Shown here piece by piece: positions 843 to 9,587 of a stretch of 11,226 nucleotides of DNA. Every line of letters begins with the position of its first letter. Position 1 is the first letter of the stretch. The notes under the pieces were generated by a model, which had not been told where the DNA came from, made no database searches, and was given only the letters and a program-made list of their open reading frames with translations. The position numbers and the translations under genes are program-made. The DNA is taken from the IMG/VR virus record IMGVR_UViG_2563366822_000009. One strand, given 5' to 3'. The DNA comes from a virus (taxonomy: Duplodnaviria > Heunggongvirae > Uroviricota > Caudoviricetes).

Positions 843-2297
843 CTATTGTTTTAATAACATTTCAAAATCCTCATTCCAGTGCGTGTTTTGTGAAATACGG
901 GTATCAATTTCATCAAGCAGCATATCATGAGAAAGTATGCTTAAAGGGTCATTCCCATTTTTACCAAAACGCATCGTAGTTTCTGCTATTTCCCAATCTT
1001 CTGCGCTGATTGATGGCTGTATTGCATGGCAGTAGATAGCCTTCACATCCTTTTCATGACAGTCAAAATTATTGATGCTTTCTGCAATTTTACGAGCTCT
1101 TTCAATTTCGACAACTGGACCATGTAAAGTTTCATATGATATATGCACAATTGTAGGGGTATTATCTGGAACCTGTCGTACCACTTTGCTTAAGTGCGTT
1201 TTAATATCTTTTGCTTTTTTATTAATCGATTCCTCTGCTATACATTCCCAACGAGCACAGTAACCAGAGTGTATTCCAGTGCAAAAAATGTTAAGTATAT
1301 CAACACCGTCGTCCGGACCTACTCGTACAAGTCCTTTTGGGGCACAAAGATGAGTGTAATTTTCGCTGCTGCTAAAACTTCCGGCCAACAACGAAACCAT
1401 CTGTGGAGAGTTCCATTTAACCATGTATTTATCAAAATGCTCATTGATATTTTTCATATCTATTCTATTAATCAGTATTATAATTTCATCATTTTCTATT
1501 CTCAGTGACTTTCTCGTCGAGATATTAGACTTTATTTCATTGAAGATTTTTGCTAAAATATATTCATCTGTATCTTTTACTTCAACCTTGAAAAGCACGT
1601 CTAAAAATATGTTTTGTCTAGACTGAGTTAGAATAGGTACTAAATTGAGCCATCTTTGCCTCCATTCTCGACGCTCATTTTCAGAATATTCAGTCACTTT
1701 AGATAAACGCTTACATTCCACAAAAAAGCTTTCTTCACCTTTAGTAACTTTTAAATCAGGAGTTTTATTTAATGCTGTTTCTGGAATAAATTCTACTCTA
1801 TAACCATTGCGCGCATACATAATCGCAACAACTAATTCAAACAATGTTGAATCAGGTTGATTTATTTTACCGTTAAGAAATTCCGAAAGTTTTTCATCAA
1901 TCCCAACAATTTTTTTTGCAAGCTCAATATGTCTTCCAACAGCCGCAAAAAAGGGAAATACTCGGGCTGATTGCGCTAACTCGCTAACTAAAGGCCGTTC
2001 ATGTAAGCATTCTACAAGAAAAAGATACCATGCAACCCAATCCTCATGAAATGCCACCCTATTTTTTGGCTCTTCCATACTCTTCATTGCTTGGTCAAAA
2101 TTCTTATAGGTGTTATCTTCCTGTTCTCTGAAGTACTTGACTACATTTTTTTTGCGAGTCTCCCAAGTATCCTTTTCCAGATAAGATAAAAACCAGTCCA
2201 ATGCAATTTTCGTATGATGATGCCAGGGACTGGTATCCGTTGCTGCAAAAATCTCTTGTAGTTCTTTTGAATATTCCAATGTCTGTGTGTTAGCCAT
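843..2297 (-). CDS. Hypothetical protein, 484 aa, in A+T-rich cargo island; PD-(D/E)xK-like motif (E154, D181, E194-C-K196); function unknown
   Basis: Long uninterrupted ORF in A+T-rich DNA. ATG at 2295-2297 is preceded by GAGG with 5-nt spacing; stop TAG at 843-845. Motif codons checked directly: D181 at 1755-1757, E194 at 1716-1718, K196 at 1710-1712. I do not recognise the family. Confidence 0.85.
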   Translation of the reverse strand: MANTQTLEYSKELQEIFAATDTSPWHHHTKIALDWFLSYLEKDTWETRKKNVVKYFREQEDNTYKNFDQAMKSMEEPKNRVAFHEDWVAWYLFLVECLHERPLVSELAQSARVFPFFAAVGRHIELAKKIVGIDEKLSEFLNGKINQPDSTLFELVVAIMYARNGYRVEFIPETALNKTPDLKVTKGEESFFVECKRLSKVTEYSENERREWRQRWLNLVPILTQSRQNIFLDVLFKVEVKDTDEYILAKIFNEIKSNISTRKSLRIENDEIIILINRIDMKNINEHFDKYMVKWNSPQMVSLLAGSFSSSENYTHLCAPKGLVRVGPDDGVDILNIFCTGIHSGYCARWECIAEESINKKAKDIKTHLSKVVRQVPDNTPTIVHISYETLHGPVVEIERARKIAESINNFDCHEKDVKAIYCHAIQPSISAEDWEIAETTMRFGKNGNDPLSILSHDMLLDEIDTRISQNTHWNEDFEMLLKQ

Positions 2298-3110: not shown

Positions 3111-4076
3111 TTATCCTCTGAAACCAGGCGGAATTTCTGTATCCGGTTCAGAAATATGATTCACACAACGCTGTACAGGTGAACGTCCCAGGCGGATGAC
3201 CAGTTCGTCCCATTTTTCGCGGAGTTTTGACGGGCTCATGATGTTTTTTACCCAGAATGGATCCCGCTGTACCCGACCAAACATTTCGCAAATTTGTCTG
3301 TGGCTTCTGCCATCCAGCATCCGCATTGTGCGCACGTCATTGGCCCAGGCTGTCCAGTTAGGCTCTTTTGGTCGCATGATCTCTCCATCGTCGCTGGCAG
3401 CCTGTTCGTAAAGGTTCACGATCCGCCCCCAAATCCACTGCGCACACGCCAAATCCTCCCTGCTACCCCACTGGCGTTTTTTCACACTAAACACAACCGC
3501 GTCGGGGTTCCGAGTTAAAAAATCCTGTTCAGTCGTCTGCGGGTCCGGTTGCGAAGCTTCCGGACGAAAAGTGTTTTTATTCTCTGTAGTAATCTCTGTT
3601 GTATTCTCTGTAAGATCATCAGGCCATTTTGACCCGATGACATTGGGTCGTTTTGAACCAATGGAGCGTTTCATTTTGACCTCTTCCATCGTGTCATTTT
3701 GACCTGATGGAGCGGCGCATTTTGAACCGATGGATTCGTTCAATTTGCCACCATCTAAAAGCTCGCTCCCATAGTTGATCGTGTAGAAATTGGTCATATC
3801 GCGCTTTGATTTATTGAGCTTTTCACAACGCAAAAGCCCCAGCGTTTTCAGACTTGCAAACGCGCGCTTTAACGTTGACTCTGACCAGAATGGGAACTGT
3901 TCCAGCCATTGTTCCGTTGTGTTATAAATCCAGCGAACACCATCACATTCCATACCGGAGTTGGTATCTCTCAACCAGTAGTGCAGTTGTTGCAAAACAA
4001 TGGCTTCGTTTAAGCCGATTTTCATTGCCAGCTGCGTGTTTATAACCAGTGGGCGTTCAGCAAAAAGAAGACTCAT
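3111..4076 (-). CDS. Phage replication initiator, lambda O-like, with the replication origin embedded in the coding sequence
   Basis: Start taken at the ATG at 4074-4076; the track ORF begins at a TTG at 4128-4130. The N-terminal region has a winged-helix-like segment (WSESTLKRAFASLKTLGLL). A central low-complexity linker (SIGSK repeats, TENTTEITTEN) coincides with the DNA iterons and A+T-rich repeats. Position is immediately downstream of the cro-like and cII-position genes, as in lambdoid phages. Confidence 0.7.
   Translation of the reverse strand: MSLLFAERPLVINTQLAMKIGLNEAIVLQQLHYWLRDTNSGMECDGVRWIYNTTEQWLEQFPFWSESTLKRAFASLKTLGLLRCEKLNKSKRDMTNFYTINYGSELLDGGKLNESIGSKCAAPSGQNDTMEEVKMKRSIGSKRPNVIGSKWPDDLTENTTEITTENKNTFRPEASQPDPQTTEQDFLTRNPDAVVFSVKKRQWGSREDLACAQWIWGRIVNLYEQAASDDGEIMRPKEPNWTAWANDVRTMRMLDGRSHRQICEMFGRVQRDPFWVKNIMSPSKLREKWDELVIRLGRSPVQRCVNHISEPDTEIPPGFRG
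3578..3613. repeat. A+T-rich tract with three tandem 12-bp repeats (TCTCTGT core) flanking the iterons; candidate DNA-unwinding element
   Basis: TCTCTGT occurs at 3581-3587, 3593-3599 and 3605-3611, preceded by GAAAAGTGTTTTTAT. It lies on the side of the iterons that is downstream in gene orientation, matching the ori-lambda layout of iterons followed by an AT-rich region. Confidence 0.5.
3625..3755. repeat. Origin-of-replication iterons: five to six tandem ~23-bp direct repeats, core CATTTTGACC-GATGGAGCG
   Basis: Repeat units begin at 3625, 3649, 3672, 3695, 3718 and a degenerate sixth at 3741; the TTTTGA core recurs at 3627, 3651, 3674, 3697, 3720. Periodicity is 23-24 bp, inside the O-like CDS. 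Confidence 0.7.
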
Positions 4077-4578
4077 AATTCCATCCAGCTTTTTGTTGGT
4101 ATTGCTGTCGATACGCAAGCTTGAAAGCAATTGCTTTTTCTATAAGTTCGTCAGTTTCACGATCTACAACGGCAGGATCTGCAAAAAGCAGTCCAGATTC
4201 CACCACATCGCCATATTCTTTATTTAACCCGGCGATCATGTACGTAATACTTTTTCCATCACTGATCTCACGATACAACCTGAAATCACTAATCCGGATA
4301 GCCTCCATAATTGCAGGCACTAGCGCTGTGAACTTTTCACGCTTATCCCTGGTGTCGATAGCCTTCCAGCGTTCGAATATCTTCACTCGATTAACGCTAA
4401 GCGCTCGCTGATCAACCGCGCCACCTTCATATGTGACACGCTGAACATCGATGTTCGGGCGCTCTTTCAAAGCCCAGAATGCTTCAGTGATTAATATCGT
4501 CGCCTGCTCCTGTGTCATTCCTGGTCGACATATCCAGGCATCCAGAGCCTCACGAGCCTGTTCAGGAGTGATTTTCAT
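4057..4578 (-). CDS. Hypothetical protein, 173 aa, between the cro-like gene and the replication initiator (cII-position gene; possibly a YdaT-like regulator)
   Basis: ATG at 4576-4578 overlaps the dicC-like stop (4562-4564) by 17 nt, and its stop (4057-4059) overlaps the O-like start by 20 nt, indicating one tightly packed operon. I do not recognise the family with confidence. Confidence 0.7.
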   Translation of the reverse strand: MKITPEQAREALDAWICRPGMTQEQATILITEAFWALKERPNIDVQRVTYEGGAVDQRALSVNRVKIFERWKAIDTRDKREKFTALVPAIMEAIRISDFRLYREISDGKSITYMIAGLNKEYGDVVESGLLFADPAVVDRETDELIEKAIAFKLAYRQQYQQKAGWNYESSFC

Positions 4579-4789
4579 TGTTCAACCGCCCCGCCCGCTT
4601 CGTCTTACGATATTCGTCATAAACTTTGGGATCATACTGAAGCTCCCCGCCAGATGCCTCCTGTAGACGCATCGCGCGACCTTCAGGAACCAGTATCCCC
4701 CAAGCAGCAACACTTGCCAGTCTCACTCCTGCGGCATTGGCAAGCTTTGTTTTGCTGCCAAAAAAAGTAATTGCGTCAACTTTAAGCAT
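4562..4789 (-). CDS. dicC: Cro-type repressor, DicC-like (75 aa)
   Basis: Translation MLKVDAITFFGSKTKLANAAGVRLASVAAWGILVPEGRAMRLQEASGGELQYDPKVYDEY... resembles DicC of the Qin prophage as I remember it. ATG at 4787-4789 is preceded by AGGGGG with 5-nt spacing; the track start is the TTG one codon upstream. Divergent from the dicA-like gene. Confidence 0.8.
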   Translation of the reverse strand: MLKVDAITFFGSKTKLANAAGVRLASVAAWGILVPEGRAMRLQEASGGELQYDPKVYDEYRKTKRAGRLNNENHS

Positions 4790-4802
4790 CAAAGCCCCCT
4801 CT

Positions 4803-4820
4803 TGTTAGATTTTTCTAACA
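4803..4820. promoter_or_regulatory. Operator palindrome TGTTAGA-TTTT-TCTAACA in the dicC/dicA divergent intergenic region
   Basis: Perfect 7-bp inverted arms with 4-bp spacer; the same arms recur at 5314-5331 and degenerately at 5349-5366. Confidence 0.55.
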
Positions 4821-4847
4821 TTATTGTGCGCGGGATACCTAAGTCAA
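4819..4847 (-). promoter_or_regulatory. Putative sigma70 promoter for the dicC-like operon (minus strand)
   Basis: On the minus strand: -35 TTGACT (4842-4847), 16-bp spacer, -10 AATAAT (4820-4825). The predicted transcription start overlaps the operator palindrome. Confidence 0.35.
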
Positions 4848-4869
4848 GAAAAATTAGAATTACCTAACT

Positions 4870-5277
4870 ATGGATACAAGAACCCTAGGCCAGCGAGTTC
4901 TGGCGCGACGAAAAGAATTACGCTTAACACAACGAGAAGCTGCGCGCCTCGCTGGAGTTGCTCACGTCACAATTTCACAATGGGAAAGAGACGAAACCCA
5001 GCCAGTCGGAAAACGATTGTTTGCTTTAGCGGATGCTCTGAAGTGCTCACCTACATGGCTAATGTTTGGTGACGAAGACAAGGCACCAGTGCCTGCACAA
5101 GAACTTCATGTGGAAACAGAGCTAACTCCCAACCACAAAGAATTGATCGAATTATTCGATGCTCTTCCATCTTCCGAGCAGGAAGCCTTGCTGTCTGAAA
5201 TGCGCGCAAGAGTAGAAAACTTCAACAAACTCTTCGAAGAAATGCTTAAAGCGCGTAAAAATAAATCAATAAAATAA
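4870..5277 (+). CDS. dicA: XRE-family HTH repressor, DicA-like (CI-type immunity repressor), 135 aa
   Basis: N-terminal HTH (LTQREAARLAGVAHVTISQWERDETQP) and the C-terminal portion (CSPTWLMFGDEDK...EMRARVENFNKLFEEMLKARK) resemble DicA as I remember it; same length as DicA. ATG at 4870, stop TAA at 5275-5277. Confidence 0.85.
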   Translation: MDTRTLGQRVLARRKELRLTQREAARLAGVAHVTISQWERDETQPVGKRLFALADALKCSPTWLMFGDEDKAPVPAQELHVETELTPNHKELIELFDALPSSEQEALLSEMRARVENFNKLFEEMLKARKNKSIK

Positions 5278-5310
5278 CATTCTTTTCAAGTGATTAGTTG
5301 CGCCCACTCT

Positions 5311-5334
5311 TTTTGTTAGACCAATCTAACAAAA
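5311..5334. promoter_or_regulatory. Operator palindrome TTTTGTTAGA-CCAA-TCTAACAAAA (perfect 10-bp arms)
   Basis: Seen directly at 5311-5334; the core is identical to the 4803-4820 operator. Lies immediately upstream of a candidate -35 element. Confidence 0.55.
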
Positions 5335-5338
5335 ACAC

Positions 5339-5367
5339 TTGCCTCTCATGTTAGGTTATTCTAAATT
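5339..5367 (+). promoter_or_regulatory. Putative promoter of the downstream plus-strand operon (dicB-operon promoter equivalent), overlapped by a third degenerate operator
   Basis: -35 TTGCCT (5339-5344), 17-bp spacer, -10 TAAATT (5362-5367). The degenerate operator TGTTAGG-TTAT-TCTAAAT (5349-5366) covers the spacer and -10. Confidence 0.4.
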
Positions 5368-5444
5368 ACTTTCTATCAAGACACCGCACGGTGTTCTCAG
5401 CAAGCAGTTCCGCTACCCCGGCGTTAAGGGGAAATGAGGTCAGC

Positions 5445-5597
5445 ATGGATACTATCGATCTTGGCAACAGCGAATCTCTGGTATGTGGCGTGTTCCCCAA
5501 CCAAGACGGTACGTTCACCGCGATGACATATACCAAAAGCAAAACGTTTAAAACCGAATCTGGCGCGCGTTGCTGGTTAGCCAGAAACACTGACTGA
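5445..5597 (+). CDS. ydfA: Small protein, 50 aa, YdfA-like (first gene of the dicB-type operon)
   Basis: ATG at 5445-5447 preceded by GAGG with 5-nt spacing; the track ORF starts at an upstream GTG without a ribosome-binding site. Size and position directly downstream of dicA match ydfA of Qin. Stop TGA 5595-5597. Confidence 0.55.
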   Translation: MDTIDLGNSESLVCGVFPNQDGTFTAMTYTKSKTFKTESGARCWLARNTD

Positions 5598-5608
5598 TGA
5601 GGCTGACG

Positions 5609-5974
5609 ATGGAATTTAAAGATTTACCGTCTGATGTACAGAAAACAGCAGCTCATACATTGCATTCTGTGCTGCGAGAAATCGGGAAAGATATTGCAAG
5701 CGAGCCAGCAAAAGATCTGGCCCGGAAAATCAAGACCGCTTTCGTTGAGCTTTATAATGTTGGCACTGACTCTGAAACTGTCGAGACCAAGACCGTAAGT
5801 TCACCAATATTCTCACTTGAGCCAGGCGTATTATCAGGTGAAATATGCACCGAGATTTCCAGCGAACTGCTTCCGGTAATACGAGAAGCAATTTGCCGTC
5901 GCGGTTTGGATGGAAGTTACGATCATGACGTCCTGCAAGTTCTCAGGACAATGGTGACTTCACTGGGGATTTGA
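5609..5974 (+). CDS. Hypothetical protein, 121 aa (dicB-operon-region protein, YdfB/YdfC position)
   Basis: ATG at 5609 preceded by GAGG (5599-5602) with 6-nt spacing. The track start at 5597 overlaps the upstream stop as TGATG but has no ribosome-binding site. Stop TGA 5972-5974. Confidence 0.6.
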   Translation: MEFKDLPSDVQKTAAHTLHSVLREIGKDIASEPAKDLARKIKTAFVELYNVGTDSETVETKTVSSPIFSLEPGVLSGEICTEISSELLPVIREAICRRGLDGSYDHDVLQVLRTMVTSLGI

Positions 5975-6143
5975 TCCCTGCGTCCTCTAACCTTTTGATA
6001 TAGCGGTCCTCCAAGAAGCGGTAAATTTTGTCGAAATCATCTTTCCCCTCTGGTTTATTCAGAGGATTACAGGACCCGTAAGTAGCGGCATACATTTCAA
6101 CCGTTTTATCAAAAATATAAGAGACAAATTCTTCTTTAGTCAT
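5943..6143 (-). CDS. Hypothetical small protein, 66 aa, convergent with and antisense to the dicB-type operon
   Basis: ATG at 6141-6143 (complement) preceded by AAGGA with 7-nt spacing. Its 3' end overlaps the 3' end of the 121-aa gene by 32 bp (5943-5974). Locally more A+T-rich than its neighbours by eye. Confidence 0.5.
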   Translation of the reverse strand: MTKEEFVSYIFDKTVEMYAATYGSCNPLNKPEGKDDFDKIYRFLEDRYIKRLEDAGIKSPVKSPLS

Positions 6144-6222
6144 ATAGATTTCCTTCTTGGTTATTCGGGATAAGAAGGATACCACCTCGCCTGACGTGGT
6201 TAAAAGCAGGCACACAACACGA

Positions 6223-6418: not shown

Positions 6419-6476
6419 TTTCTGGTGACGTTTGGCGGTATCAGTTTTACTCCGTGACTGCTCTGCCGCCGTTTTT
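6419..6476 (+). ncRNA. dicF: DicF-like small RNA (ftsZ-targeting antisense sRNA of Qin-type prophages) with intrinsic terminator
   Basis: Sequence TTTCTGGTGACGTTTGGCGGTATCAGTTTTACTCCGTGACTGCTCTGCCGCC followed by GTTTTT matches my memory of the roughly 53-nt DicF RNA. GGCGG (6434-6438) / CCGCC (6466-6470) stem followed by a T5 run. Lies about 175 bp upstream of dicB. Confidence 0.6.
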
Positions 6477-6645: not shown

Positions 6646-6834
6646 ATGAAAACGTTATTACCAAACGTTAATACGTCTGAAGGTTGTTTTGAAATTGGTG
6701 TCACTATCAGTAACCCTGTATTTACTGAAGATGCCATTAACAAGAGAAAACAAGAACGGGAGCTATTAAATAAAATATGCATTGTTTCAATGCTGGCTCG
6801 TTTACGTCTGATGCCAAAAGGATGTGCACAATGA
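6646..6834 (+). CDS. dicB: Cell-division inhibitor DicB, 62 aa
   Basis: Translation MKTLLPNVNTSEGCFEIGVTISNPVFTEDAINKRKQERELLNKICIVSMLARLRLMPKGCAQ matches my memory of DicB. ATG at 6646 preceded by GAGGA with 7-nt spacing; the track ORF begins further upstream at an unsupported start. Confidence 0.8.
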   Translation: MKTLLPNVNTSEGCFEIGVTISNPVFTEDAINKRKQERELLNKICIVSMLARLRLMPKGCAQ

Positions 6835-7115: not shown

Positions 7116-9587
7116 ATGAGTAAAGTCTTTATTTGCGCCGCTATTCCTGACGAACTGGCAACAAGGGAAGAAGGCGCTGTGGCTGTAGCCACAGCCATTG
7201 AAGCTGGCGACGAACGCCGTGCTCGAGCAAAATTTCACTGGCAGTTCCTGGAACATTATCCGGCTGCTCAGGACTGCGCTTATAAATTTATTGTCTGCGA
7301 GGATAAACCTGGCATACCCCGCCCTGCCCTCGATTCATGGGATGCTGAATATATGCAGGAAAACCGCTGGGATGAGGAGTCTGCTTCTTTTGTCCCGGTT
7401 GAGACTGAATCCGATCCGATGAACGTCACTTTTGACAAGCTGGCCCCTGAAGTACAGAACGCTGTCATGGTTAAGTTCGACACATGTGAAAACATCACCG
7501 TTGATATGGTTATTAGCGCACAGGAATTGTTGCAGGAAGACATGGCAACATTCGACGGACATATCGTTGAAGCGTTGATGAAAATGCCAGAAGTTAACGC
7601 CATGTATCCGGAGCTTAAGTTGCACGCCATTGGGTGGGTTAAGCATAAATGTATTCCTGGTGCTAAATGGCCCGAAATTCAGGCAGAGATGCGCATCTGG
7701 AAAAAACGTCGCGAAGGTGAACGCAAGGAAACCGGAAAATACACGTCTGTTGTTGATCTCGCCCGCGCCAGAGCCAATCAACAGTACACTGAAAATTCAA
7801 CAGGAAAAATCAGCCCGGTCATTGCTGCCATTCATCGCGAATACAAGCAGACATGGAAAACACTGGATGACGAACTGGCCTACGCTCTCTGGCCTGGTGA
7901 TGTGGATGCCGGAAACATTGACGGCAGCATCCATCGCTGGGCAAAAAAAGAAGTTATCGACAACGACCGCGAAGACTGGAAGCGTATCTCGGCATCAATG
8001 CGCAAACAGCCTGATGCCCTTCGCTACGACCGCCAAACTATTTTTGGCCTTGTCCGTGAGCGTCCGATCGACATTCACAAAGATCCCGTAGCACTGAACA
8101 AATATATCTGCGAATACCTGACGACAAAGGGCGTGTTTGAGAATGAAGAAACAGACCTGGGCACTGTTGATGTTCTCCAGTCATCAGAAACACAAACTGA
8201 TGCAGTGGAAACTGAGGTATCTGATATCCCAAAAAATGAAACCGCGCCGGAAGCTGAACCATCTGTAGAGCGTGAGGGGCCGTTCTATTTCCTCTTCGCA
8301 GGTAAGGACGGAGAAAAATACGGTCGCGCAAACAAACTTTCTGGTCTGGATAAGGCACTGGCTGCTGGCGCCACTGAAATCACAAAAGAAGAATATTTTG
8401 CCCGAAAAAATGGCACATACACGGGCTTACCGCAAAATGTTGATACCGCTGAAAAGACCGAACAACCAGAGCCGATAAAAGTTACCGCTGACGAAGTAAA
8501 CAAAATTATGCAGGCAGCCAATATCAGCCAGCCTGACGCCGATAAGTTGCTTGCTGCATCACGTGGTGAATTTGTTGAAGGGATTAGTGCCCCGAATGAT
8601 CCGAAATGGGTTAAGGGGATCCAGACCCGCGATTCTATGAACCAGAACCAGCATGAATCGGAACGGAACTACCAAAAAGCGGAACAAAACAGCCCAAATG
8701 CGTTACAAAACGAGCCAGAAACGAAACAGCCTGAACCAATGGCGCAACAGGAAGTGGAAAAAGTCTGCACCGCCTGCGGTCAGACCGGCGGCGGCAACTG
8801 CCCTGATTGTGGCGCGGTGATGGGCGACGCAACATACCAAGAAACATTCGATGAAGAGTATCAGGTTGAAGTTCAGGAAGATGATCCGGAGGAAATGGAA
8901 GGCGCTGAACATCCACACAAGGAGAACACTGGCGGCAATCAGCATCACAATAGCGATAATGAAACTGGCGAGACGGCAGATCACTCAATTAAGGTGAACG
9001 GTCATCACGAAATCACATCCACCAGCAGGACGTGTGACCATCTAATGATCGACCTTGAAACCATGGGAAAAAATCCTGATGCCCCGATCATCTCAATAGG
9101 TGCAATATTTTTCGATCCGCAAACCGGAGATATGGGACCGGAATTTAGTAAGACTATCGATCTGGAAACTGCTGGCGGAGTCATTGATCGGGACACCATT
9201 AAATGGTGGCTTAAGCAATCACGCGAAGCGCAATCTGCCATTATGACCGATGAAATCCCGTTAGATGATGCACTGTTACAATTGCGGGAATTTATCGACG
9301 AAAACTCCGGTGAATTTTTTGTTCAGGTTTGGGGAAATGGAGCCAACTTCGACAACACGATTTTGCGCCGTTCATACGAACGGCAGGGGATCCCCTGCCC
9401 GTGGCGTTACTACAACGATCGCGATGTACGCACAATCGTTGAGCTGGGGAAAGCCATAGATTTCGATGCCAGAACGGCTATTCCATTCGAAGGTGAGCGC
9501 CATAATGCACTTGATGACGCCCGTTACCAGGCAAAATACGTTTCAGTTATCTGGCAAAAACTGATCCCGAGTCAGGCTGATTCTTAA
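7116..9587 (+). CDS. Large prophage protein, 823 aa, with C-terminal DnaQ-like DEDDh 3'-5' exonuclease domain; resembles the family annotated exodeoxyribonuclease VIII / YdfE-like in E. coli prophages
   Basis: ATG at 7116, stop TAA 9585-9587. C-terminal motifs seen directly: Exo I MIDLETMG (D646, E648; codon 9051), Exo [10 protein letters not shown] (D746; codon 9351), Exo III HNALDDA (H796, D801; codon 9501). Acidic low-complexity linker with C-x2-C-x7-C-x2-C zinc ribbon at 8766-8810. Segment [31 protein letters not shown] resembles a RecE segment as I recall it. Confidence 0.9.

Follow-up and report, generated by a model that had tools for sequence, protein, structure and literature searches.

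The DNA analyzed here, a viral stretch of 11,226 nucleotides that we refer to as the window, has the gene content of the early region of a Qin-like prophage. We estimate a probability of about 0.86 that the locus around dicA in this window serves a Qin-like lambdoid prophage as its immunity switch and represents a variant allele of the dicA/dicC switch of E. coli K-12. Judged from the DNA sequence, the three palindromes first noted around dicA are almost certainly the repressor-binding sites through which this switch would silence DicF and DicB. The allele is an ordinary member of the known DicA/DicC system, whose layout was described for K-12 decades ago.

The genes of the putative switch and of the operon that it would repress are located as follows.

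4562-4789, minus strand: dicC-like gene (Cro analogue, 75 aa, ATG at 4789); Pfam P22_Cro, E = 4.9e-12
4870-5277, plus strand: dicA-like repressor gene (135 aa); Pfam HTH_3, E = 1.5e-14
5445-5597, plus strand: ydfA-like gene (DUF1391), with which the operon proposed to be repressed begins; 88% identical to K-12 YdfA
6420-6471, plus strand: DicF small RNA; Rfam RF00039, 72.5 bits (gathering score 48), E = 8.5e-15
6646-6834, plus strand: dicB (cell-division inhibitor, 62 aa); 100% identical to K-12 DicB

The initial annotation had named all of these genes, and each call held when checked against Pfam, Rfam and the K-12 sequences. The DicA-like product, which is just 56% identical to K-12 DicA over its full length, consists of an N-terminal P22 C2-type HTH domain (residues 1-71 correspond to the C2 N-terminal domain, E = 1.3e-18) followed by a short C-terminal domain. 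A Pfam search of this 135-aa protein gave no match to Peptidase_S24, the autocleavage domain, and K-12 DicA has been described as having no RecA-dependent cleavage site (PMC10448788). From its sequence, the protein is predicted to act at DNA like a CI/C2 repressor, yet it falls outside the SOS-cleavable class. The DicC-like product is 87% identical to K-12 DicC, with all differences in the N-terminal HTH part, and its gene is followed in the leftward operon by a ydaT-like gene and then an O-like replication gene. In near-identical genomes, the ydfA-like gene is labeled as encoding a DUF1391 family protein. The locus thus contains an HTH repressor of approximately 135 aa, a divergent Cro-like gene, dyads at the K-12 positions and a ydfA/DicF/DicB operon, all features of a Qin-like switch. 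No rem gene was identified within the window.

We searched the whole window for the pattern TGTTAGA-N4-TCTAACA. There were two exact matches, at 4803-4820 (TGTTAGATTTTTCTAACA) and 5314-5331 (TGTTAGACCAATCTAACA), and a copy with three mismatches at 5349-5366 (TGTTAGGTTATTCTAAAT); these are the three palindromes reported previously. A fourth, degenerate site, which adjoins the dicA ATG at 4852-4869 (AATTAGAATTACCTAACT) and is 89% complementary to 5349-5366, had been overlooked. The sites and the promoters that they accompany are listed below.

4803-4820, no strand: operator 1 (equivalent of K-12 Oc), perfect palindrome TGTTAGA-TTTT-TCTAACA
4820-4847, minus strand: leftward dicC promoter; -35 TTGACT (4847-4842), 16-bp spacer, -10 AATAAT (4825-4820)
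4852-4869, no strand: fourth, degenerate operator-like site (equivalent of K-12 Oa), AATTAGA-ATTA-CCTAACT
5310-5335, no strand: operator 2, an 11+4+11 perfect palindrome with core TGTTAGA-CCAA-TCTAACA at 5314-5331
5339-5367, plus strand: rightward operon promoter (equivalent of K-12 dicBp, lambda PL analogue); -35 TTGCCT (5339-5344), 17-bp spacer, -10 TAAATT (5362-5367)
5349-5366, no strand: operator 3, degenerate TGTTAGG-TTAT-TCTAAAT with three mismatches

Operator 2, previously delimited as a perfect palindrome at 5311-5334, agrees with the 11+4+11 palindrome, and operator 3 starts 35 bp past it. The proposed operator sequence needed trimming: the palindromes stand, and the conserved core is TGTTAG-N6-CTAACA, as in K-12 Oc, with position 7 free (A or G even inside this allele). 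The window contains six perfect 7-N4-7 palindromes, compared to a mean of 0.92 in first-order Markov simulations of the window (n = 1000), and among these six only 4803-4820 and 5314-5331 have a common half-site. A perfect-palindrome pair with a common half-site occurred in 0 of the 1000 simulations, and by analytic calculation a second exact copy is expected 4e-5 times. Two exact copies and one degenerate copy are far more than chance would give. Another three-mismatch match, in AT-rich DNA at 685-702, was set aside as noise, as approximately 0.5 such matches are expected by chance.

The sites are closely fitted to the promoters. The leftward dicC promoter, matching the consensus at 10/12 positions, was the sole match of a consensus promoter scan in the region. 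Operator 1 begins at the last base of its -10 and spans the dicC start region, as expected from the earlier placement of an operator in the divergent dicC/dicA promoter region. Between dicA and ydfA, the top sigma-70 match is TTGCCT-17-TAAATT, whose 8/12 agreement lies below the threshold of a stricter consensus promoter scan. The operator 2 core ends 7 bp 5′ of this -35, and operator 3 spans the spacer and five of the six bases of the -10, matching the initial description of two downstream sites that bracket the -35 and cover the -10. The literature texts searched contained no experimentally mapped dicBp start site. The likely dicA -10, TAGAAT (4855-4860), lies inside 4852-4869, 9 nt before the ATG and without a Shine-Dalgarno sequence, and a -10-like hexamer is present 6-9 nt before the dicA ATG in 20/20 loci that we compared. 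As K-12 dicA mRNA is leaderless (PMC4681348), the dicA mRNA of this allele is probably leaderless as well. At 5380-5395, the ydfA leader has a conserved hairpin, but folding of the leader as a whole was no more stable than that of shuffled sequences.

The original description of the three K-12 dyad sequences is reportedly that of Bejar et al. in 1986. Compared to K-12 Qin, the window is near-identical in its flanks and clearly diverged from approximately 4690 to 5375. Identity within this segment is concentrated in islands at TTGTTAG, CTAACA, the dicA start, both -35 boxes, (T)GTTAG and CTAA. The three sites of the initial annotation align column by column with known K-12 Qin sites, Oc among them. 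The K-12 immunity locus, with operators Oc, Om and Oa and the dicBp sites (Bejar et al., 1986, 1988; Yun et al., 2012; Ragunathan and Vanderpool, 2023), and the locus described here have a common gene order, with dicC leftward and dicA, ydfA, DicF, dicB and ydfD rightward. Also common to both are the site offsets (-67/-68 and -18 from the dicA ATG, +36/37 and +71/72 past the stop), 12 conserved operator bases (TGTTAG...CTAACA), the TTGACT dicC -35, a TTGnCn-17-TAAnnT operon promoter whose spacer carries an operator, and a short repressor of 135 aa. Besides the repressor sequence, they differ at site bases 7-12, with position 7 being A or G here and T or C in K-12. The site 5′ of the operon -35 is perfect and extended here, whereas its K-12 homologue (TGTTAGCTATAGCATACA) is a poor palindrome, and this allele has no counterpart of K-12 Om (TGTTAACAAAAACATA). 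The window also carries xis, int and an exonuclease gene that is intact (823 aa), while K-12 has a ydfE pseudogene and an IS2 element.

Binding and expression data exist for the K-12 counterparts. In vivo, DicA binds K-12 Oc (TTGTTAGTCATAACTAACAA), but no longer when a single A of its CTAACA is replaced by C (PMC3441716); all three sites of the initial annotation retain this A. When each was assayed alone, K-12 Oa and Om showed no DicA binding in vivo (PMC3441716). K-12 DicA represses dicC and activates dicA (PMC3441716), and it strongly represses dicBp, upstream of ydfA, where no other promoter was found (PMC10448788). The repression of dicBp supports the likeness to DicA at the dicB promoter that had been suggested for this locus. 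K-12 DicC represses dicA 48- to 84-fold, and its ChIP-seq peaks flank dicA on both sides and contain a palindromic motif, TT(A/C/T)G..C(G/A/T)AA (PMC11430063). The main text of the ChIP-seq compendium does not mention DicA, a paper on DicC of O157:H7 contains no binding-site data, and the operator strings of this allele had no match in the literature texts searched.

We compared approximately 20 DicA-like loci from at least eight genera, including Escherichia, Citrobacter, Enterobacter, Rahnella, Symbiopectobacterium, Superficieibacter, Buttiauxella and others. All have one layout, in which a single strong palindrome upstream of dicA adjoins the -10 of the leftward dicC promoter and two sites downstream of dicA, 35-36 bp apart, lie around a TTGnnn-17-TAAnnT promoter. 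In most loci, operator 1 is at -67/-68 from the dicA ATG and the TTGnnn-17-TAAnnT frame is the top or joint-top promoter match; the dicC -35 reads TTGAC[TAC] in 16/20. Ten loci were aligned. In the dicC-dicA spacer, their invariant positions are TTGTTAG and TAACA of operator 1 and AGTCAA, the dicC -35 on the plus strand. Downstream of dicA they are TGTTAG (5314-5319), CTTG (-35), GTTAG (5350-5354) and TAA..T (-10), and at the fourth site (4852-4869), TTAG..ATT..CTAACTATG / TTAG..CTAACTATG. Inside this allele, variation falls at central positions 7-12 (TTTT, CTTT or TATT; CCAA, TCAA or TTGA; A/G at 7), and the sole change elsewhere is a T-to-C at position 1 of site 3 in one locus (L023). Since the P22 repressor contacts positions 2-7 and 12-17 and not 8-11 (PMC4267663), changes limited to the central positions are as expected.

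The palindrome sequence also shifts with the HTH residues of the repressor. Across the approximately 20 loci, TQR in helix 2 accompanies TGT.. (7/7 types), while SQA, SQN or SQS accompanies CCTT, TATT or ACTT; similarly, ISQWE is paired with TTAG and ISLWE with TTGAG. The matrix of cognate and non-cognate matches is block-diagonal, with the types being few and phylogenetically related. For this comparison, each palindrome was taken from a position-restricted search with 7-4-7 geometry, which replaced an unrestricted search for the best 7-4-7 palindrome in the 100 nt upstream of the dicA homologues that had returned unrelated palindromes in several loci. For L013, L016, L017, L019 and L018, the most distant types, a fixed 7-4-7 geometry is a poor fit, making their matrix rows weak evidence. 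The repeats of these loci resemble ATAAC-N-GTTAT or CTTAAC types.

Comparative footprinting and repressor/operator co-variation support the putative operator and promoter assignments. Together with the K-12 site alignment, they also favor the earlier suggestion that a single repressor would control both its own switch and the division-inhibitor operon.

In the switch that we propose, the DicA-like repressor would most likely bind as a dimer to 18-bp sites with the core TGTTAG-N6-CTAACA. On operator 1, it would silence the counterpart of lambda PR and with it dicC, the ydaT-like gene and the replication genes, since this site starts at the last -10 base and spans the start site. There it would also favor the weak, overlapping rightward dicA promoter, whose TAGAAT 9 nt before the ATG would probably give a leaderless mRNA, as at lambda PRM. 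On operators 2 and 3, the repressor would block the rightward operon (ydfA ... DicF, dicB, ydfD, exonuclease, xis and int; the lambda PL analogue) and so keep the cell-division inhibitors silent. We infer dicA activation and DicC use of the same sites by analogy: the Cro-like DicC probably shares the operators, including the weak 4852-4869 over the dicA -10 and start, and would turn dicA off. Opposition between the repressor and this counter-repressor would make the switch bistable. As K-12 Om and Oa, each on its own, were not bound by DicA in vivo, the degenerate sites 5349-5366 and 4852-4869 may be weak sites, sites that depend on cooperativity, or DicC sites.

The status of these degenerate sites is where an alternative deserves most weight. 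The true DicA operators might be just the perfect palindromes at 4803-4820 and 5314-5331, with the degenerate copies kept mainly for their -10 boxes and the dicA start and bound, if at all, by DicC. Such an arrangement would fit the lack of DicA binding at K-12 Oa and Om (PMC3441716) as well as the DicC peaks on either side of dicA and the strong repression of dicA by DicC (PMC11430063). Moreover, TAGAAT lies inside 4852-4869, TAAATT overlaps 5349-5366, and an Oa-like element (TTAGAAT / TTAAGAT ... CTAA..ATG) persists in the TTGAG-type loci L009, L011, L014 and L018. Since this element is conserved even where the main palindrome differs, its conservation comes in part from promoter and start-codon constraint and not from repressor recognition, and conservation of the degenerate sites may be owed in part to the -10 boxes that they contain. 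However, the GTTAG left half-site of 5349-5366 is invariant in the 10 loci although promoter function by itself does not constrain the sequence of the spacer in which it lies. Further, this spacer half-site tracks the immunity type (GTTAG, CTTAGG, GTTGAG, AATGAG), which argues for recognition by an immunity-specific protein. In addition, weak sites often need cooperativity with a strong neighbor, as with lambda OR2 and OR3, and an assay of isolated sites is blind to this. On balance, we consider it rather unlikely that DicA uses the perfect palindromes alone.

Far less probable is that the palindrome at 5310-5335 acts in RNA, as the dicA transcription terminator. It can form an 11-bp hairpin on the plus strand (-9.7 kcal/mol, z = -4.9 compared to shuffles), 33 nt past the dicA stop codon, but the stem is AU-rich, the hairpin is followed on either strand by AAAAA rather than a U-run, and a terminator scan was negative at this position. 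Folding of the K-12 counterpart is weak (-4.7 kcal/mol, z = -1.5), yet the TGTTAG half-site is invariant, and the 14 bases are repeated at 4803-4820, a place at which one would not expect a terminator. On these grounds, we rejected the terminator. That the repeats are chance matches or functionless relics in a decaying cryptic prophage is hardly credible. K-12 Qin is cryptic and the window is limited to the early region, but none of the simulations produced the palindrome pair, half-sites are invariant across species while adjacent DNA falls to low identity, and the K-12 switch is functional. The layout is also kept in records deposited as complete phage genomes (PPompW). The conservation data thus contradict an origin by chance or decay.

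Viewed as an immunity switch, the locus can be set beside P22 immC (C2/Cro) and lambda CI/Cro. The DicA-like N-terminal domain is homologous to that of C2 (E = 1e-18), with a recognition helix of the form ..V.ISQWER., the DicC-like protein belongs to the Pfam P22_Cro family, and both systems have 18-bp dyads with a variable center, corresponding to the uncontacted positions 8-11 in P22. Unlike the 135-aa DicA-like protein, C2 has 216 aa, and its C-terminal domain is RecA-cleavable (as cited in PMC10448788). OR and OL of P22 each contain three adjacent operators, whereas here the PR-like side has one strong and one weak site 49 bp apart and the PL-like side has two sites 35 bp apart; the half-site sequence also differs. 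With lambda, the locus has in common divergent repressor and Cro genes, a repressor that would block both early promoters and sustain its own expression from a weak promoter, a leaderless repressor mRNA (as for K-12 dicA) and predicted bistability. Operator number and spacing differ from lambda, and there is no SOS autocleavage, derepression in K-12 occurring via the antirepressor Rem, heat or urea. There are 11 bp between the end of operator 1 and the putative dicA -35, so that no sigma contact of the lambda kind is apparent.

The allele is present in 566/5426 complete E. coli genomes, including E. coli B derivatives, or approximately one-tenth. Its conceptual gain over the K-12 DicA/DicC model is none and its practical value is modest. 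The allele would control DicF and DicB, both of them toxic division inhibitors as well as phage-resistance factors, and the map of operators and promoters is useful for engineering carrier strains or interpreting their filamentation and prophage induction. The table of HTH residues and palindromes from the approximately 20 loci is a ready specificity series for P22 C2-type HTH domains.

Since this DicA and that of K-12, though just 56% identical, have in common the 12 contacted operator bases and almost all of the recognition helix, prophages with different dicA alleles in one cell might be homo-immune and cross-regulate their DicF/DicB operons, an idea that we hold tentatively and with considerable doubt. 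A further idea, held with the same reserve, is that the repressor loops out its own gene. With 2+2 sites around dicA and the strong ones 511 bp apart, looping could occur as between OL and OR bound by lambda CI.

The window carries the early genes of a lambdoid prophage of the Qin type, and its repressor locus is an uncharacterised but common allele of the known dicA/dicC system. Knowledge of this system and its layout goes back to the 1980s, with renewed study in 2012-2024; Bejar et al. (1986, 1988) reportedly gave the first account of the three dyad sequences. We found no description of the window allele in the accessible literature. Of 5426 complete E. coli genomes, 566 carry the immunity allele, and it is found in E. 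ruysiae and E. albertii as well. In the E. coli B laboratory derivatives C2566 and B-RalR, the allele (4700-5400) has 99.3% identity, and an 89.5%-identical copy of 4700-5400 in 'Escherichia phage Rac' (MN652886) is annotated dicA/dicC. The layout is lambdoid: DicA stands where CI would be, DicC corresponds to Cro, and the PL operon has its counterpart in the ydfA-to-int operon.

Genes around the switch
3111-4130, minus strand: O-like replication gene
4057-4578, minus strand: YdaT-family gene
4562-4789, minus strand: dicC-like gene (P22_Cro family; 87% identity to DicC)
4870-5277, plus strand: dicA-like gene (135 aa; HTH_3 domain; 56% identity to K-12 DicA)
5445-5597, plus strand: ydfA-like gene (88% identity to YdfA)
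5597-5974, plus strand: ORF, function unassigned
6420-6471, plus strand: DicF RNA (Rfam 72.5 bits; gathering score 48)
6646-6834, plus strand: dicB (100% identity to K-12)
7116-9587, plus strand: exonuclease (823 aa)

Residues 1-71 of the DicA-like protein match the N-terminal domain of P22 C2 (E=1.3e-18). Downstream of dicB, a ydfD-like ORF is followed by the exonuclease and then by xis-like and int ORFs.

The initial annotation proposed three copies of a TGTTAGA-N4-TCTAACA operator flanking the dicA-like gene. All three sites are present, two as exact copies and one with three mismatches, and a fourth, degenerate copy had been overlooked.

Palindromes at the switch
4803-4820: operator 1, TGTTAGATTTTTCTAACA, exact (pattern search)
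5314-5331: operator 2, TGTTAGACCAATCTAACA, exact (pattern search)
5349-5366: operator 3, TGTTAGGTTATTCTAAAT, three mismatches (pattern search)
4852-4869: fourth, degenerate copy, AATTAGAATTACCTAACT (repeat finder)

Operator 2 is the core of a perfect 11+4+11 palindrome (5310-5335). The fourth site, which the repeat finder scored as 89% complementary to operator 3, adjoins the dicA ATG at 4870. Of six perfect 7-N4-7 palindromes in the window, only those at 4803-4820 and 5314-5331 have a half-site in common. A pair sharing its half-site arose in none of 1000 first-order Markov simulations, and the analytic expectation of a second exact copy by chance is 4e-5. A further three-mismatch match, TATTAGGATTTTCTAAGA (685-702), lies in AT-rich DNA at the end of the ORF at 403-690 and is probably noise, since about 0.5 such matches are expected by chance.

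A consensus scan of 4500-5700 returned a single promoter, that of dicC, reading leftward (TTGACT, 4847-4842; 16 bp; AATAAT, 4825-4820). Operator 1 starts at the last base of the dicC -10 and spans the expected start; a protein bound there would thus keep RNA polymerase off this promoter. The top sigma-70 candidate in the interval from dicA to ydfA (TTGCCT, 5339-5344; 17 bp; TAAATT, 5362-5367) agrees with consensus at 8/12 positions, compared to six for the runner-up. Operator 2 lies upstream of this -35, separated from it by 7 bp, and operator 3 spans the spacer together with five of the six -10 bases. The sites thus bracket the -35 and cover the -10 of the presumed ydfA-dicF-dicB promoter, exactly as the initial annotation had claimed. 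The dicA gene lacks a Shine-Dalgarno sequence and has a putative, near-consensus -10 (TAGAAT, 4855-4860) 9 nt before its ATG; the hexamer at the -35 position (GGGATA, 4832-4837) is a poor match. All 20 DicA-like loci with intact genes share a -10-like hexamer placed 6-9 nt ahead of the ATG. This position, together with the missing Shine-Dalgarno sequence, fits the K-12 dicA mRNA, which is among the five E. coli mRNAs found to be leaderless (PMC4681348). The dicC promoter (4820-4847) and the putative dicA promoter (4832-4860) overlap in their core elements, so shutting off dicC could be enough on its own to favour dicA transcription.

The ydfA leader contains a small hairpin at 5380-5395 (ACACCG-CA-CGGTGT / GACACC..GGTGUU) that many loci keep; in Citrobacter loci, the same place holds a hairpin of different spelling. 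The hairpin might serve in processing or as a nut-like signal. Compared with shuffled sequence, the whole leader showed no excess stability (z = -0.5).

We compared the window with the K-12 Qin prophage (MG1655 1645500-1651500). The two are nearly identical left of ~4690 and right of ~5375 and clearly diverged between, a pattern that reads, on alignment, as a classic immunity-region mosaic. Because the left joint falls within dicC, the DicC C terminus is identical and the proteins differ only in the N-terminal HTH part. Within the diverged block, identity clusters at the regulatory elements: TTGTTAG ... CTAACA, where operator 1 aligns to K-12 Oc (TTGTTAGTCATAACTAACAA); AGTCAA, the dicC -35; TTAG.ATTA.CTAACTATG, the Oa-like site and dicA start; TGTTAG, where operator 2 aligns to K-12 TGTTAGCTATAGCATACA; CACTTG, the -35 of the operon promoter; and ATGTTAG ... 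CTAA, where operator 3 aligns to K-12 TGTTAGTCATGGCTAATC. Among the matches listed, in genomes that cover 98% of the window (99.4-99.9% identity), the match begins at position 220; 1-219 is of different origin in those genomes, which suggests a further mosaic or insertion joint.

Among five copies of the window allele (the window and loci L002, L003, L023 and L024), nearly all operator changes fall at positions 7-12 (centres TTTT/CTTT/TATT and CCAA/TCAA/TTGA; position 7, A/G; position 12, T/C). The sole exception is in L023, where position 1 of site 3 has changed from T to C. These patterns define the conserved operator as TGTTAG-N6-CTAACA, whose 12 bases are identical to those of K-12 Oc, in place of the proposed 7-4-7 motif. 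The variable centre agrees with the P22 repressor, which on 18-bp sites contacts positions 2-7 and 12-17, not 8-11 (PMC4267663).

A pattern scan that took a single genome for each species yielded 21 loci encoding DicA relatives; phage records and E. coli genomes supplied four more. Across the 20 loci with intact genes, a common arrangement recurs. A strong dyad is positioned -65 to -68 relative to the dicA ATG, directly after the -10 of a leftward promoter with -35 TTGAC[TAC]. Downstream of dicA, two sites 35-36 bp apart flank the -35 and fill the 17-bp spacer of a TTGnnn-17-TAAnnT promoter. Alignment of ten TTAG-type loci revealed invariant TTGTTAG, TAACA, AGTCAA and TTAG..ATT..CTAACTATG upstream, and TGTTAG (5314-5319), CTTG (5338-5341), GTTAG (5350-5354) and TAA..T (5362-5364, 5367) downstream. 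Operators also co-vary with the repressor. TQR at the start of helix 2 accompanies TGT.. outer bases in all seven types, SQA/SQN/SQS loci have CCTT, TATT or ACTT, and recognition helices ending ISQWE or ISLWE go with TTAG or TTGAG, respectively. When the upstream dyad of each locus was matched to the downstream regions of all loci, the matrix was block-diagonal. As the independent types are few and related, this co-variation is supporting evidence rather than statistical proof.

The simulations and the invariant columns of the ten-locus alignments exclude the possibility that the repeats are chance matches or relics. The 5310-5335 palindrome could also be read as a terminator, as its hairpin is stable (-9.7 kcal/mol). 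However, it is followed by A's whichever strand is read, its K-12 counterpart hardly folds and the operator 2 half-sites recur at the divergent promoter, and we rejected this reading. A less likely reading than the main one is that only the perfect palindromes are DicA sites. Both degenerate sites (4852-4869 and 5349-5366) do contain -10 boxes, the Oa-like element is kept even in loci with a different main dyad, and the sequence-predicted K-12 Om and Oa, each alone, did not bind DicA (PMC3441716). Against this, the GTTAG half of site 3 is invariant despite its place in the promoter spacer and varies with immunity type.

Experiments in K-12 suggest how the switch may work. DicA is a repressor of dicC and an activator of dicA, and it binds Oc in vivo; high-copy cloning of the dicA/dicC promoter region selected single-base changes clustered in Oc, and an A-to-C change in its CTAACA abolished binding (PMC3441716). 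DicA, which lacks a RecA cleavage site, strongly represses dicBp, upstream of ydfA, and no further promoter was found in that region; derepression follows the antirepressor Rem, heat or urea, or occurs spontaneously in ~1% of cells (PMC10448788). In ChIP-seq, DicC bound most strongly on both sides of dicA, at a palindromic motif TT(A/C/T)G ... C(G/A/T)AA, and its induction lowered dicA expression 48- to 84-fold (PMC11430063). By analogy, DicA-like dimers, perhaps binding cooperatively, would block the dicC promoter at operator 1 while allowing or stimulating leaderless dicA expression, and at operators 2 and 3 would block the ydfA-DicF-dicB promoter. The DicC-like protein would compete for the same sites and, by binding the weak site that overlies the dicA -10, switch dicA off. 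Sequence, position, homology, conservation and co-variation support the original proposal of a single repressor controlling its own locus and the division-inhibitor operon, with the motif and site count corrected.

Two ORFs in the window match protein families of unknown function. A small ORF (5943-6152, minus strand; PHROG 34441, E=1.8e-50) lies antisense within the ydfA-DicF-dicB operon, between the ydfB/C-like ORF and DicF, where K-12 has ydfC in sense orientation. The other (843-2297, minus strand, 484 aa; PHROG 37220) sits just past the replication genes in a low-GC block (1-2500; GC 0.32-0.40 compared to 0.44-0.51 elsewhere in the window). A Pfam search with this protein gave no match, and PADLOC gave only a marginal match to a GajB fragment (E=0.0024). 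This ORF has the look of prophage cargo and may be a defence gene.
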